Shown in pieces: positions 48,032 to 51,651 of a DNA stretch of 64,000 nt; within the stretch, counting starts at the first letter, position 1, and every line of letters starts with the position of its first letter. This stretch comes from an uncultured delta proteobacterium (GTDB taxonomy: Bacteria; Myxococcota; UBA727; VGSZ01). Below the pieces are notes generated by a model that was not told where the DNA came from, did not search any database, and saw nothing but the letters and a program-made list of their open reading frames with translations. Made by a program: the position numbers and the translations under genes. The stretch is taken from positions 32,001-96,000 of the forward strand of contig CAVZJB010000003.1 in the NCBI GenBank assembly GCA_963775425.1, given 5' to 3'.

Positions 48032-51000
48032 ATGGGTCGTCTCGCTGCGCCGCTCGCGGCCGCCTTCGTCCTCGCCGCCGCTGTTCCCGCCCGGGCCGAG
48101 GTCATCCTCCAGTATTTCGAGACCCCGTGGACCGAGATCGAGGCGCGCATGCCCGAGATCGCCGCGGCCGGCTATGACGCGCTGTGGCTCCCCCCGCCCA
48201 CCAAGGGCGCCGAGGGCACGCGCGACGTCGGCTTCTCGGTGTTCGATCGCTTCGACCTCGGGGACGAGGATCAGCGCGGCACCGTTCCCACGCGCTACGG
48301 CACCAAGGACCAGCTCGTGTCCCTCGTCGAGACCGCGCACCGCTTCGGCGTCCGCGTGTACTTCGACGTCGTCATGAACCACAACGGCAACCCCAACGCC
48401 ATCGAGAACGTCGGCGTCAGCCTCGACCCGGTCGACCTCGACGGCTACCCCGGCACCGACGTGTGGGACTACCACGTGCTCCCCGCGCGCCCGTCCGACG
48501 CCGGCAATTGCAACGACGGCAGCAGCGGCTGCCTGTTCTGCGCCTTCCAGGCCACCGCGGCCTCCGACGTCGACAGCGACGGCGCGCAGTTCGGCGGCAA
48601 CCAGTGGCGGGTGCTCACCGCGCCCGGCCAGTACATCGGCGGCGGCGGCGAGGTCTGCGTCGTGGACCGCGAGGCCGGCGAGGACCGCACCGCCTCCATC
48701 TCGCTCACCGACGCTTTGGCGGAGCCGGGCGCGCCGTCGTCGTGGCCGACGATCTTTTCGGCGTACGACCGCCTCGTGCGCGCGCCGCGCATCTCGGACT
48801 TCTCCGACTTCGGCTTCCAGGTCTCCAACTGGGACCTCGTCGGCCTGCACGACTTCGCCACCGAGCAGTACGAGGACGGCACCGGGCCCACCGCGCTCGA
48901 CGGCACCAACGCCGTCCTCGGCACGGCGCTGCCGCGCTTCGTCAGGAACCCCGGCCGCGACGACACGTATCAGTACGACGACGACCCCACGCCCCACGAC
49001 GAGGACATCCGCGAGTACCTCATGCGCTGGATCCGCTGGCTCATGCTCGAGACCGGCGCCGACGGCTTCCGCCTCGACGCCATCAAGCACGTGTGGCCGA
49101 ACTTCTATCGCGCGGACTTCGCCGGCGACCGCATCGCCTTCGTCAAGGTCATCCAGGACACCTACGACGAGATGCACGGCTTCACCGACGCCGACGACAC
49201 CGACCTCGTCGACGACGCCGCCGTCTTCGGCGAGGACTTCACCGGCGACTGCGGCTCGCTCAAGCCGTACATCAACACCGGCATGCGGGCGCTCGACTTC
49301 CCGTTGTTCTTCAACCTCGCCAACCTCGCCAAGGGCGGCGACATCCGCGCGTTCTCGGGTCCGCAGAGCGGCTCCTGCGCCGATGTCAGCGTCGGCGCGT
49401 TCATGGGGCTCAACCGCAAAAGCGGCGTCGCGTTCGCGCAGTCGCACGACGAGTGCCAGGTGACCGAGCACGCCGACGAGAACAACCTCTCGTCCACGTT
49501 CTCGCGCTGCTTCTTCGACAACGGCAGCAGCGACATCGTCTACGGCTACATCCTCACCCGCGACGCCGACGCCGCCGTCTACACCGACGGCAACCACTGG
49601 ACGCCGCAGAGCTTCGTGCGCGCCGGCCGCCCCGACGCCGTCGGCGACACGAGCTCGGGCGGCGCGCCGTTCGGCGGCATGCCGCTGTTCGTGCACGCGG
49701 CGCACCGCACGGCGCGCGGGGCGCAGCAGAACATGTGGGTGCGCAGCAACGGCGGCTTCGGCGAGGCCGACGGCTACGCCTACGAGCGGGTCGTCGCCGG
49801 CGGCGGCGCGACCGACGGCGGAGCGGCGGGCGTCGTGGTGCTCAACGACGGCGGCTCCGGCGACCTCGCCTTCGGCACCGGCAGCAACACCGGCAGCTTC
49901 ATCTTCACCACGTTCCCGCCGGACACCGAGCTGTGCGAGCTCACCGGCAACGCGCTGGACTTCGGGCAGGGCTGCTACACCACGCTCGACCCGGGCACGC
50001 TCGGTGTCGACGAGCAGGGGGCCGTGGACGAGGCGCGCGCGGCGTTCTCCGTCGGCAACGGCGGGGCCTCGCCGCCGTCGGGGAGCAGCGTCCTGTACAC
50101 GCACGTCGCCGGCGGCTCCTTCGTCATCTACGCGCCGCGCGCCTTCGGCGAGCCGTCGGGCTCCGGCGACGACGTCGTGCAGGCGCAGAACATCCCCACG
50201 GCGGGCCTGGTGCCGGGCGTGCACGCGCTCCACGTGCGCTTCCGCCGGGCGGTCGCCGGCGCCGCCGACGCGCAGGACGAGGTGGTGGTGCCCTTGTGCA
50301 AGCCGTCGCCCACGGCGGGCGCGGACGCGTGCGGGGCGGCCGTCAGCGCGCCGGTGCCCGCCGACGACCCGGTCTCCCGCGGCCTCGTCGAGGTGCTGGT
50401 GAACGGCAGCGCGGCGCAGCGGCGCGCGGTGCAGACGGCGGCGGCGCGCACGCTGCCGGACGGCACGGCGGTGGCGGCGGCCCACGCGTTCCACGCGCTC
50501 CTCGACGGCGCCACGTTCGACGTCGTGGTGCACACCGATCCGGCGGTGTCCGTCGACGACATCGCCGTCCGCGTCGACGACGACCCCACCGTGGTCGGGG
50601 GCTTCGTCCTGCACGGCACCGGCGAGCGCTTCCTCGACGGCTTCACCAAGCTCTTCCCGCCCGGCGTGGAGCCGCCCGACGCGGGGCCGGGCGAGGGCGA
50701 GGGCGAGGGCGAGGGCGAGGGCGAGGGCGAAGGCGAGGGCGAAGGCGAGCCCGACGCGGGACCCGTGAACCCCGGCGGCGACGACGACGGCGACGGCGTG
50801 GCGAACGGCATCGACAACTGCCCGGACACGCAAAACGCCGACCAGGCCGACTTCGACGAGGACGGCGTCGGCGACCTCTGCGACCTGTGCGTGCTCGAGG
50901 GCAACAGCGACACCGAGAACGTCGACGCCACCGGCTGCCGCCCGGTGTCCCCCGAGGAGCGGGCGAGCATCGAGCAGATCGCGCGGGCCATCGCCGAGCG

Positions 51001-51091
51001 GCGGGGCGCCACGGCCGACACGGACATCAACAGCGACGGCGTCGTCGACGTCGTCGATCTCGACAAGGCCATCGCGGAGGCCCACCAATGA
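48032..51091 (+). CDS. Secreted GH13 alpha-amylase with (GE)n linker, TSP3 repeats and C-terminal dockerin-like module
   Basis: VILQYFE, LWLPP, TRYGT, DVVMNH, GFRLDAIKH, FGE, FAQSHD; DGDG...DNCP; DINSDGVVDVVDL. Confidence 0.88.
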   Translation: MGRLAAPLAAAFVLAAAVPARAEVILQYFETPWTEIEARMPEIAAAGYDALWLPPPTKGAEGTRDVGFSVFDRFDLGDEDQRGTVPTRYGTKDQLVSLVETAHRFGVRVYFDVVMNHNGNPNAIENVGVSLDPVDLDGYPGTDVWDYHVLPARPSDAGNCNDGSSGCLFCAFQATAASDVDSDGAQFGGNQWRVLTAPGQYIGGGGEVCVVDREAGEDRTASISLTDALAEPGAPSSWPTIFSAYDRLVRAPRISDFSDFGFQVSNWDLVGLHDFATEQYEDGTGPTALDGTNAVLGTALPRFVRNPGRDDTYQYDDDPTPHDEDIREYLMRWIRWLMLETGADGFRLDAIKHVWPNFYRADFAGDRIAFVKVIQDTYDEMHGFTDADDTDLVDDAAVFGEDFTGDCGSLKPYINTGMRALDFPLFFNLANLAKGGDIRAFSGPQSGSCADVSVGAFMGLNRKSGVAFAQSHDECQVTEHADENNLSSTFSRCFFDNGSSDIVYGYILTRDADAAVYTDGNHWTPQSFVRAGRPDAVGDTSSGGAPFGGMPLFVHAAHRTARGAQQNMWVRSNGGFGEADGYAYERVVAGGGATDGGAAGVVVLNDGGSGDLAFGTGSNTGSFIFTTFPPDTELCELTGNALDFGQGCYTTLDPGTLGVDEQGAVDEARAAFSVGNGGASPPSGSSVLYTHVAGGSFVIYAPRAFGEPSGSGDDVVQAQNIPTAGLVPGVHALHVRFRRAVAGAADAQDEVVVPLCKPSPTAGADACGAAVSAPVPADDPVSRGLVEVLVNGSAAQRRAVQTAAARTLPDGTAVAAAHAFHALLDGATFDVVVHTDPAVSVDDIAVRVDDDPTVVGGFVLHGTGERFLDGFTKLFPPGVEPPDAGPGEGEGEGEGEGEGEGEGEGEPDAGPVNPGGDDDGDGVANGIDNCPDTQNADQADFDEDGVGDLCDLCVLEGNSDTENVDATGCRPVSPEERASIEQIARAIAERRGATADTDINSDGVVDVVDLDKAIAEAHQ
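50690..50749 (+). repeat. (GE)10 coding repeat
   Basis: Hexamer array. Confidence 0.9.
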
Positions 51092-51651
51092 CCACAGCGA
51101 GCACGCGTCGCCGTTCGCCCACGGCTCACGGTGGGGCGCCCCTCCGGAGCGCGCGCGGCGGGCGCGCAGGGCCGCGCCCGATCAAGCGCGGCCGCTCCCT
51201 CCGGTCGCTGATCACCGCGCCGCACCGAGGGCGCATCGTGGCGCTCGCGGCGCTGCTCGCCGCCGGCGCCTGCGAGTGCGGGACCCCGCCGCCGCCGCCG
51301 CCGTCGGGGGCCGTCGGACAGATCACCGCCGCGCCCGTGGACGGCGGCTTCGAGCTGCGGCTCGAGAACATGACGCAGTCGGTGCGCGCGCTCCAGGTCG
51401 ACGTCAAGCTCGAGGGCGCGCACGCCACCGCGGCCGTCGCCGCCCAGGGCAGCGACCTGGTGGAGGCCGCCCTCGGCGACCCCAAGGACGACTTCACCGT
51501 CGTCGCCGGCGACACCCGGCGGCTGAACCTGCCCACCGGCGCCGTCGTCCGTGTCACCACGGACGCGGCCCCTTCGAAGATCAGCCTCTCGCACGCCGTC
51601 GCCGTCGACGACAGCGGCGCGCGACGGGACGTCACTGTGGTGGTTCCATGA
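51088..51651 (+). CDS. Small lipoprotein with cohesin-like beta-sandwich
   Basis: GGAGG RBS, ATGA coupling; AGAC lipobox, poly-Pro, then LRLEN...VRALQVDV...GAVVRV...ISLSHAVAVD pattern. Confidence 0.7.
   Translation: MTTASTRRRSPTAHGGAPLRSARGGRAGPRPIKRGRSLRSLITAPHRGRIVALAALLAAGACECGTPPPPPPSGAVGQITAAPVDGGFELRLENMTQSVRALQVDVKLEGAHATAAVAAQGSDLVEAALGDPKDDFTVVAGDTRRLNLPTGAVVRVTTDAAPSKISLSHAVAVDDSGARRDVTVVVP
51181..51208 (+). repeat. 28-bp repeat, inverted partner of 47019-47046
   Basis: Exact match, encodes IKRGRSLRS. Confidence 0.9.

Follow-up and report, generated by a model that had tools for sequence, protein, structure and literature searches.

A candidate one-to-one cohesin-dockerin tether, divergent in sequence, between an alpha-amylase and the lipoprotein encoded next to it in a Myxococcota starch operon

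How a large secreted enzyme is kept at the cell that exports it is the question raised by an alpha-amylase gene in contig CAVZJB010000003.1 of an uncultured delta proteobacterium (Myxococcota; assembly GCA_963775425.1), of which positions 32,001 to 96,000 of the forward strand, 64,000 nucleotides of high-GC DNA in all, were analysed (hereafter the window, whose numbering is used for all plain coordinates below). Neither a lipobox nor a MYXO-CTERM signal is present in the translated amylase, in which a preliminary description of this DNA had seen no anchor other than its C-terminal end. The same description had proposed that the end of the amylase is a dockerin with a degenerate first Ca loop, and that it is held by a stand-alone cohesin-like lipoprotein encoded by the next, translationally coupled gene. 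The analysis reported here indicates that the two genes probably encode a minimal, sequence-divergent 1:1 cohesin-dockerin tether within a five-gene starch operon. The parts of the pair are located as follows.

48032-51091, + strand: glycoside hydrolase family 13 (GH13) alpha-amylase gene, the putative client enzyme, 1019 amino acids (aa) (open reading frame (ORF), translation, Pfam Alpha-amylase 2.5e-15)
50690-50749, + strand: flexible (GE)10 linker, aa 887-906 (sequence; also in orthologues)
50780-50890, + strand: thrombospondin type-3 (TSP3) Ca-binding repeat, aa 917-953 (PDB profile search, NCBIfam)
50921-51088, + strand: dockerin-like tail, aa 964-1019 (AlphaFold2 (AF2), structural search)
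51023-51058, + strand: single EF-hand/dockerin-type Ca loop DINSDGVVDVVD (tail alignment)
51076-51091, + strand: GGAGG Shine-Dalgarno sequence at 51076-80, 7-nucleotide spacer, ATGA stop/start overlap at 51088-91 (sequence)
51088-51651, + strand: gene for a stand-alone lipoprotein with a predicted cohesin fold, 187 aa (translation; homologues of 141-171 aa; single copy in the genome)
51181-51207, + strand: copy of a 27-nucleotide dispersed repeat in the N-terminal region of the lipoprotein, encoding IKRGRSLRS (genome pattern scan)
51271-51303, + strand: putative lipobox Cys62 (51271-73), second conserved Cys64 and Pro-rich linker TPPPPPP (51283-51303) (alignment)
51304-51648, + strand: predicted cohesin-fold, nine-strand beta domain, aa 73-187, 115 aa (AF2, Foldseek, structural search)

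In the AF2 model of the lipoprotein, built from seven sequences, the chain is disordered to residue 60, while the domain is predicted with confidence as nine strands (pLDDT mostly > 90; block values from residue 71 of 81, 95, 92, 96, 92, 79, 94, 83, 93, 95, 90 and 87). All six Foldseek matches of this model in the PDB at E <= 1e-3 are cohesins (2jh2 chains A-C, 2w1n, 2vo8 and 5n5p_C), the best being 2jh2_A (E 7.6e-5, TMt 0.68), and nearly all further rows are also cohesins. A structural search independent of Foldseek places cohesins at ranks 1-17 of 48,161 representative chains, with Z scores of 13.9-8.9, 106-115 residues aligned and a root-mean-square deviation (rmsd) of 2.3-3.1, led by 2w1n_A (Z 13.9, rmsd 2.5, 112 aligned) and 2vo8_A (Z 13.9, rmsd 2.3, 109 aligned); the first non-cohesin follows at Z 8.8, and the top cohesin scores lie well above the background of this search at Z 7-8. 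As modelled, then, the domain is a nine-strand cohesin jelly-roll, the fold whose absence the preliminary description had named as fatal to its proposal. The all-beta domain of about 110 aa that it had foreseen measures 115 aa, and the strand motifs VRALQVDV and HAVAVD that it had picked out are strands 3 and 8. The predicted dockerin face is made up of strand 3 (VRALQVDV), strand 5, strand 6 with the DTRRL loop, and strand 8 (HAVAVD). An Ig-like match to FixG_C (E 0.023) was treated as noise, and NCBIfam gave no relevant match for the lipoprotein.

The amylase ends in ...CRPVSPEERASIEQIARAIAERRGATADTDINSDGVVDVVDLDKAIAEAHQ before its stop codon, and its tail (VDATGCRPVSPEERASIEQIARAIAERRGATADTDINSDGVVDVVDLDKAIAEAHQ) is laid out as a conserved GC(R/P) segment, helix 1 (~50951-50995), a linker, an EF-type loop and helix 3 (~51050-51082). 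In the loop DINSDGVVDVVD, oxygen-bearing side chains occupy EF-hand positions 1, 3, 5, 9 and 12 in 11 of 11 aligned orthologous tails, and D35, D43 and D46 of the tail, at positions 1, 9 and 12, do not vary. Ahead of helix 1, the segment VDATGCRPVSPEE has an invariant Cys at position 5 and Ala at position 1 in two of the 11 tails; it is not a conserved Ca loop, which is why the first loop is called degenerate. The helix, linker and Ca-loop-helix order read by the preliminary description, with its degenerate first loop, thus holds both in the window sequence and across the 11 tails. When the last 110 residues of the amylase were modelled with AF2 (11 sequences), the TSP3 part was poorly predicted, and residues 60-110 reached a pLDDT of 90-98, with a helix at 65-79, a loop and a helix at 98-108 of the 110-aa construct. 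In the Foldseek-independent search, ranks 1-9 of the 48,161 chains are all dockerins (Z 5.8-4.3 over 44-47 residues), at scores that small helical models often reach by chance. The best is 2vn5_B (Z 5.8, rmsd 2.3, 45 aligned), and 2ccl_B (Z 5.5), 3ul4_B (Z 5.0) and 2ozn_B (Z 5.0) are among those that follow; the alignment spans helix 1 to helix 3, and unrelated helical hairpins stand below the dockerins at Z <= 4.2. With Foldseek, the first six rows are dockerin chains, the best of them 1ohz_B (E 1.4, TMt 0.60). The individual scores are weak, and what suggests a dockerin-like fold for the modelled tail is that dockerins, and only dockerins, top both lists.

The input for a complex prediction comprised the lipoprotein domain with its alignment of 17 sequences, the 56-aa tail with one of 11, and a single Ca ion. 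The interface score of the complex, ipSAE, expresses the confidence of the model itself; it came to 0.94 in all three runs, against 0.17, 0.02 and 0.00 for three controls, a margin of +0.77. The ipSAE mark is reached by 116 of 157 solved complexes and by 2 of 215 mismatched pairs, counts that apply only approximately here because the present input included its own alignments and the Ca ligand. The runs have at least 92% of their contacts in common, and both partners have a pLDDT of at least 88. On the lipoprotein, the contact residues are 39-42, 63, 65-67, 75-78, 80-85, 110-112, 116 and 118 in mature numbering; with 61 added, they map to strands 3, 5, 6 and 8 and to the 6/7 and 8/9 loops of the AF2 model. 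On the tail, the contacts are made by helix 1, helix 3 and the conserved Cys. In known complexes, according to PMC5429695, the 8-3-6-5 sheet is the dockerin-interacting plateau of cohesins, dockerin helices 1 and 3 contact this plateau, and the 6/7 and 8/9 loops lie near helix 1. The modelled interface is also where the lipoprotein is conserved: 12 of 21 interface positions are invariant or nearly so, compared with 11 of 94 other positions (one-sided Fisher p = 2.4e-5), while in the tail 11 of 18 interface positions are conserved, compared with 11 of 38 others (p = 0.023), although this test is not independent of the model, as the predictor saw the same alignments. On these models, the tail probably binds the lipoprotein. 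Compared by eye, a distant clade has DKRG in place of DTRR in the lipoprotein and ...VERIL... in place of ...ARAIA... in helix 1; with 16 pairs from few clades, nothing is claimed from this change.

The two genes are joined as the preliminary description had reported. The amylase stop codon TGA (51089-51091) overlaps the lipoprotein ATG at 51088 in a 4-nucleotide ATGA, with the GGAGG lying 7 nucleotides upstream. No further in-frame ATG, GTG or TTG occurs between 51088 and a GTG at 51238; the latter was rejected as an alternative start, since the charged n-region would be lost, and the ATG at 51088 is preferred because GGAGG and the ATGA overlap are common to relatives and a start at 51238 leaves no charged n-region. 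The lipoprotein then runs into ...VALAALLAAGA-C62, which we take to fit the lipobox pattern, and the Cys62 and Cys64 columns are nearly invariant in 17 sequences. The lipobox of the preliminary description corresponds to this lipobox-like sequence; its poly-Pro "stalk" shrinks to just six prolines.

Neither component was found alone, and this is what makes their distribution informative. In the window genome, the lipoprotein is present in one copy and the tail profile has one significant match (2.7e-28), the next being at 0.019. Across the 38 genomes of the class, the lipoprotein and tail profiles match the same 11, the tail once in each, and the other 27 have neither, although the counts overstate independence because related genomes are kin, and the tail profile was built from genomes in which it was then counted. 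Among the 10 other genomes of the same family, two, estimated to be 85% and 89% complete, lack both parts. The GTDB class of 38 species genomes contains one family of 21 with genomes of 0.3-3.4 Mb and other families with genomes of 4.5-8.3 Mb; the small-genome family has neither tail nor lipoprotein. In all 10 other positive genomes of the class, the ORF immediately before the lipoprotein gene terminates in the tail, with six ATGA overlaps and four spacers of 1-3 nucleotides at the junction, and in these relatives a third lipoprotein gene comes next, overlapping or abutting. A profile search of 401 genomes of the phylum found matches in 24, of which 16 are full-length at E <= 1e-12 (the 11 of the same class and five from two other families in other classes); the remaining eight are weak and partial (E 4e-5 to 9e-4) and were kept out of the synteny counts. 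In all five distant genomes, the upstream gene ends in a TSP3 repeat followed by a helix / EF-loop / helix tail, and in the three that were compared it is an orthologue of the window amylase (E 8e-32, 2e-35 and 7e-24). The tail and the lipoprotein are thus adjacent in 15 of 15 relatives examined, a recurrence beyond chance.

Larger collections give the same picture. Among 1.84 billion representatives, the lipoprotein family has 37 matches at E <= 1e-3, of which 34 are stand-alone proteins of 108-177 aa. The three long matches (519, 461 and 1032 aa) were considered as multi-cohesin scaffoldins and rejected, being GBS_Bsp-like and Calx-beta repeat proteins. When longer proteins from 5.8 billion clusters were searched with the tail profile, 14 matched, comprising two fragments and 12 full-length proteins of 1001-1037 aa, all with PF00128. 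A scan of metagenome contigs for relatives gave 49 pattern matches, none of which was confirmed, and a scan of genome contigs gave two loci only, which are the same records as two of the genome-search matches and were counted once. The pair is old, narrow in distribution, always 1:1 and always on the window amylase family. The 1:1 relation read by the preliminary description agrees with this distribution, each part being single-copy, present in the same 11 of 38 class genomes and, on the lipoprotein side, encoded by family members that all stand alone.

The lipoprotein could also be a shared anchor with additional or different clients. The Pfam dockerin model PF00404 has five matches at E <= 1 in the window genome, none of them at the window tail; they include Dockerin_1 matches at C5:245430-245600 (23.3 bits with neighbours) and on C16 (23.1 bits), and the genome holds no Pfam Cohesin (PF00963, 0 matches) that might serve them. 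A protein with a two-loop dockerin, such as the M1-type metallopeptidase-like one, would then be a possible partner. However, the tail profile does not match those dockerin proteins at E <= 1, and the lipoprotein always follows an amylase of the window type, in 15 of 15 relatives. A wider clientele is highly improbable. The metallopeptidase-like protein (HELAHSWWG; C5:245430-245600, ORF 1474-3096 on the - strand of locus L024) ends in a canonical two-loop dockerin (GDVSLDGRVDAVDL ... YDVDNSGAVDDADV) in a genome without a Pfam cohesin.

Several observations weigh against a cohesin-dockerin pair, in addition to the limits given above with the tail Z scores, the ipSAE values, the conservation counts and the genome counts. 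The complex score may reflect mere likeness, because cohesin-dockerin complexes are well represented among solved structures. At the level of sequence profiles, Pfam PF00963 (gathering threshold 24.1 bits) has no match at E <= 10 to the lipoprotein, whole or mature, and matches only one of 47 family members (E 0.086, 13.5 bits). A profile of those 47 sequences finds nine PDB matches at E <= 10, none of which is a cohesin, and the ESM Atlas feature search offers weak leads only, its best value of 0.91 being to unnamed clusters; one cluster at 0.88 has PF00963 on 14% of its members and is likewise a lead only. Pfam PF00404 (gathering threshold 22.9 bits) has no match at E <= 10 to the 116-aa or the 56-aa tail, and the tail-profile matches to dockerins in the PDB (2jnk 0.083, 5lxv_B 0.24, 1ohz_B 0.45) are non-significant (E 0.083-1.6) and stand among many calmodulin EF-hand matches, the EF-hand protein 3aka scoring 0.0014. 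A phmmer search of the 116-aa tail against PDB sequences gave no match at E <= 10. In structure, only three chains match the tail at Z >= 5, and Foldseek gives none at E <= 1e-3. Where a type I dockerin has two tandem segments of ~22 residues, each a Ca loop and a helix, the tail has ligand-type residues in the second loop only, and so appears to carry a single Ca loop where a dockerin has two. Finally, export of the lipoprotein is less certain than that of its homologues, because an atypically long stretch of 49 aa precedes its hydrophobic core. Judged by its residues, the tail loop can be called an EF-type Ca loop and nothing further. Two of the four distant orthologous tails that were scanned have sub-threshold scores with Pfam Dockerin_1 (20.2 and 17.3 bits, cut-off 22.9), and these are the only sequence-level link to the dockerin family.

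The two proteins might also not bind each other at all. In that case, the lipoprotein would serve as a beta-sandwich that binds starch or glycans, of the carbohydrate-binding module (CBM) or SusE/F type, the tail a Ca-dependent stabilising or sorting module, and their synteny a matter of shared function only. CBM2 and chitin-binding domains do occur lower in the fold lists (6qfs_B, 3ndy_E and 5dhd with Foldseek; 3ndy_E at Z 7.1 and 2rtt at Z 7.0 in the Foldseek-independent list), and the generic EF-hand character of the tail loop, with no sequence-level family membership, would suit such a module. Yet cohesins fill ranks 1-17 and exceed every CBM by 5 or more Z units, the conserved patch lies on the protein-binding face of cohesins and coincides with the predicted contacts, the complex beats its controls by +0.77, and tail and lipoprotein are gained and lost together. 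We consider two unconnected modules distinctly unlikely. For the proposed tether, the binding expected by the preliminary description is predicted in silico, where all three runs score 0.94 and the best control 0.17; neither module is a member of the Pfam family that it had pointed to.

The long N-terminal region of the lipoprotein, relative to its homologues, is accounted for by the copy of the 27-nucleotide repeat inside it. This repeat, with GCGGCCGC, is exact at 47020-47046 (- strand) and 51181-51207 (+ strand), and each of these two window copies encodes IKRGRSLRS and lies where a secretory gene codes for the N-terminal region of its product. Genome-wide it has 142 matches at <= 3 mismatches (60 forward and 82 reverse; none for a reversed-pattern control), for example at C3:637106-637282, C16:505162-505338 and C4:509835-509921. 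Many copies stand in tandem arrays with a 30-nucleotide period, and therefore keep the reading frame.

The amylase itself matches PF00128 at 2.5e-15 (57.1 bits, cut-off 22), an assignment to GH13 that refers to the catalytic domain as a whole rather than to its catalytic residues; NCBIfam alpha-amylase models reach 3.5e-39, under their curated cut-offs. Read by eye, its N-terminus is a Sec-type signal peptide (MGRLAAPLAAAFVLAAAVPARA/EV). The C-terminal 135 residues contain, in order, the (GE)10 linker, one TSP3 repeat and the 56-aa tail. The repeat, which the preliminary description had not named, is recognised when a profile of 110-aa tails is compared with PDB sequences (COMP 2.3e-37, thrombospondin-2 3.8e-34) and by NCBIfam throspo3_MtsC on the window amylase (1.1e-5 at aa 916-969). 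Pfam TSP_3 (PF02412) has no match on the window amylase itself and is present on four of four distant orthologues, so that the region is counted as a TSP3 repeat. Four Cys are invariant in the C-terminal region, and three of them lie inside the repeat by alignment column. The invariant Cys969 of the tail may, speculatively, be disulfide-bonded to the TSP3 repeat, and because of this possible pairing one can speculate further that the repeat has a supporting role, as X modules have for type II dockerins.

The pair opens a chain of five genes, each overlapping the next by ATGA. After amylase 1 and the cohesin-fold lipoprotein come genes 3 and 4 and then a second GH13 amylase; these last three are located as follows.

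51648-55905, + strand: gene 3, lipoprotein of ~1400 aa (choice-of-anchor X, Big_5, weak X25 pullulanase-like), ATGA-coupled (Pfam, NCBIfam)
55902-57809, + strand: gene 4, protein of 635 aa with a Big_5 domain, ATGA-coupled (ORF, Pfam)
57806-62002, + strand: gene 5, second GH13 amylase, 1398 aa (Pfam Alpha-amylase 2.9e-48, TSP_3 1.6e-6)

Gene 3 changes frame near 52255. Its orthologue in a relative (locus L002) is one uninterrupted ORF of 1402 aa, whose alignment follows frame +1 as far as 52256 and frame +2 from 52255 onwards; the cause is a frameshift mutation or else an error in the assembly. Upstream of the operon are two divergent genes, at 46246-47058 (- strand) and 47154-48011 (- strand). 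One encodes a secreted protein with Glucodextran_C (2.1e-43), the C-terminal binding module of glucodextranase, which resembles a surface-layer homology (SLH) domain; the product of the other is a membrane protein with DUF4013 (3.1e-8). The two genes may form part of the same alpha-glucan locus.

The second amylase bears on where the pair would sit. It shares the layout of a (GE)n linker and then a TSP3 repeat, after which come ...CGC..., a hydrophobic stretch and a run of Arg, and this end scores 18.7 bits with the TIGR03901 MYXO-CTERM model (cut-off 20). As its annotated N-terminus does not resemble a signal peptide, translation may in fact begin further downstream. Because the two amylases share linker and TSP3 repeat and differ in their ends, the C-terminal end is suggested to be the anchoring device in both. 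MYXO-CTERM directs proteins to the cell surface. The single argument for an outer or surface location of the pair is accordingly that the second amylase of the operon has a MYXO-CTERM-like end where the first has the tail. Alternatively, the modelled binding might take place in the periplasm. The lipoprotein would then be anchored in the inner membrane, or in the inner leaflet of the outer one, and would either keep the amylase there or serve as its pilot or escort during export, without displaying it on the surface. All of the support for binding fits this arrangement equally well, and both proteins carry only Sec-type signals. The MYXO-CTERM-like end of the second amylase (18.7 bits against a cut-off of 20) would speak for the surface, as would genes 3 and 4, which appear to encode large Ig-domain lipoproteins of the kind usual for capture of surface polysaccharides, and among periplasmic enzymes an amylase of 1019 aa with a long acidic linker would be unusual. 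A periplasmic pair is, on this evidence, rather unlikely.

If the pair is the surface tether proposed here, it would work as follows. The amylase would be exported by means of its Sec signal peptide. Behind the (GE)10 linker and the TSP3 repeat it would present a "half-dockerin" of ~50 aa, composed of helix 1, a short linker, one EF-type Ca loop and helix 3, in which a conserved Cys-containing segment appears to replace the first Ca loop. Translational coupling would supply amylase and lipoprotein in matched amounts. The lipoprotein would comprise a lipidated Cys, a short Pro-rich spacer and then one cohesin-fold domain, and in the model helices 1 and 3 of the tail lie on the flat 8-3-6-5 face of that domain, where the putative binding surface is formed by the conserved R-x-L-Q of strand 3, E-A of strand 5, T-x-V of strand 6 and D-T-R-R-L of the 6/7 loop. 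Ca2+ in the single loop would be needed for the tail to fold. As the tail is without the internal duplication of canonical dockerins, only one binding orientation would be possible, and 1:1 binding in this orientation would hold the amylase on the membrane. That membrane would most probably be the outer one, with the pair facing out.

Known pairs resemble this arrangement in part. The C. perfringens NagJ cohesin and NagH dockerin (PDB 2ozn; cohesins 2w1n, 2vo8, 2jh2 and 2o4e) form a non-cellulosomal glycoside hydrolase pair, and C. perfringens cohesins are the best matches of the lipoprotein (Z 13.9, 13.9 and 12.0; Foldseek ranks 1-5), while the tail matches 2ozn_B at Z 5.0, one of its highest scores. 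According to PMC5429695, NagJ-NagH is a 1:1 joining of two proteins outside the cellulosome with a single binding mode. It differs in coming from a Gram-positive Firmicute, in that the cohesin is a module inside a large enzyme, and in a dockerin with two Ca loops; the C. perfringens cohesins share only 11-13% sequence identity with the window lipoprotein, and the C. perfringens modules were named cohesin and dockerin by the depositors of their structures, whereas the window modules are invisible to Pfam. In Clostridium thermocellum, OlpA and OlpC (PDB 3ul4 and 4dh2) each use one anchoring cohesin to recruit a single dockerin enzyme to the cell surface, and their structures match both models (cohesins Z 10.8 and 10.9; dockerins Z 5.0 and 4.6). 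Their dockerins are canonical and duplicated, unlike the window tail, and OlpA and OlpC are anchored through an SLH domain to a Gram-positive wall rather than by a lipid to the membrane of a diderm. A single binding mode is given for the OlpA and OlpC pairs too in PMC5429695.

The amylosome of Ruminococcus bromii is likewise reported to organise GH13 amylases for starch degradation by cohesin-dockerin contacts (PMC4611034, PMC12663171). It has several scaffoldins and enzymes in a Firmicute, whereas the window system pairs a single cohesin with a single client in a diderm, each encoded by one gene copy. MYXO-CTERM (TIGR03901) is a further parallel, as a C-terminal anchoring device that follows the (GE)n linker and TSP3 repeat in the second amylase. 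It is a covalent or processed membrane anchor with sortase-like handling, not a protein-protein plug. The wide non-cellulosomal spread of cohesins and dockerins is already known. PMC10553843 reports cohesin and dockerin domains in Gram-negative Desulfobacterota, in putative adhesins. No lipoprotein cohesin paired with an amylase dockerin in Myxococcota was found in the literature outside subscription journals, and PMC11557425 makes no mention of Myxococc-, Gram-negative, lipoprotein or Proteobacteria. Relative to the known pairs, the new elements are the lipid anchor in a diderm, the stand-alone cohesin, the half-dockerin behind a TSP3 repeat and the absence of a duplicated dockerin repeat.

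The cohesin-dockerin interaction is a standard example of modular extracellular assembly and is much used in protein engineering. To our knowledge, such pairs have been studied almost only in Gram-positive anaerobes. It is conceivable, if not quite probable, that the pair belongs to an unrecognised, deep cohesin-dockerin lineage spread across several classes of diderm, Myxococcota-type bacteria, in which a minimal lipid-anchored cohesin and a TSP3-buttressed half-dockerin with a single Ca loop, their translation coupled, act as a dedicated hook that holds one amylase at the surface. This hook, the second amylase with its MYXO-CTERM anchor and the two giant Ig-domain lipoproteins would then form the Gram-negative equivalent of an amylosome, with no relation to Sus systems. 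If the pair binds, the mechanism would exist also in diderm, myxobacterium-like bacteria, with a lipid in place of the wall anchor, and a dockerin could work with one Ca loop in ~45 residues, the smallest natural version. Such pairs would evade all sequence profiles and be visible only by fold and context, and because they escape those profiles their true spread is probably underestimated. For this uncultured lineage, the pair would provide a testable model of how a five-gene starch operon places its enzymes.

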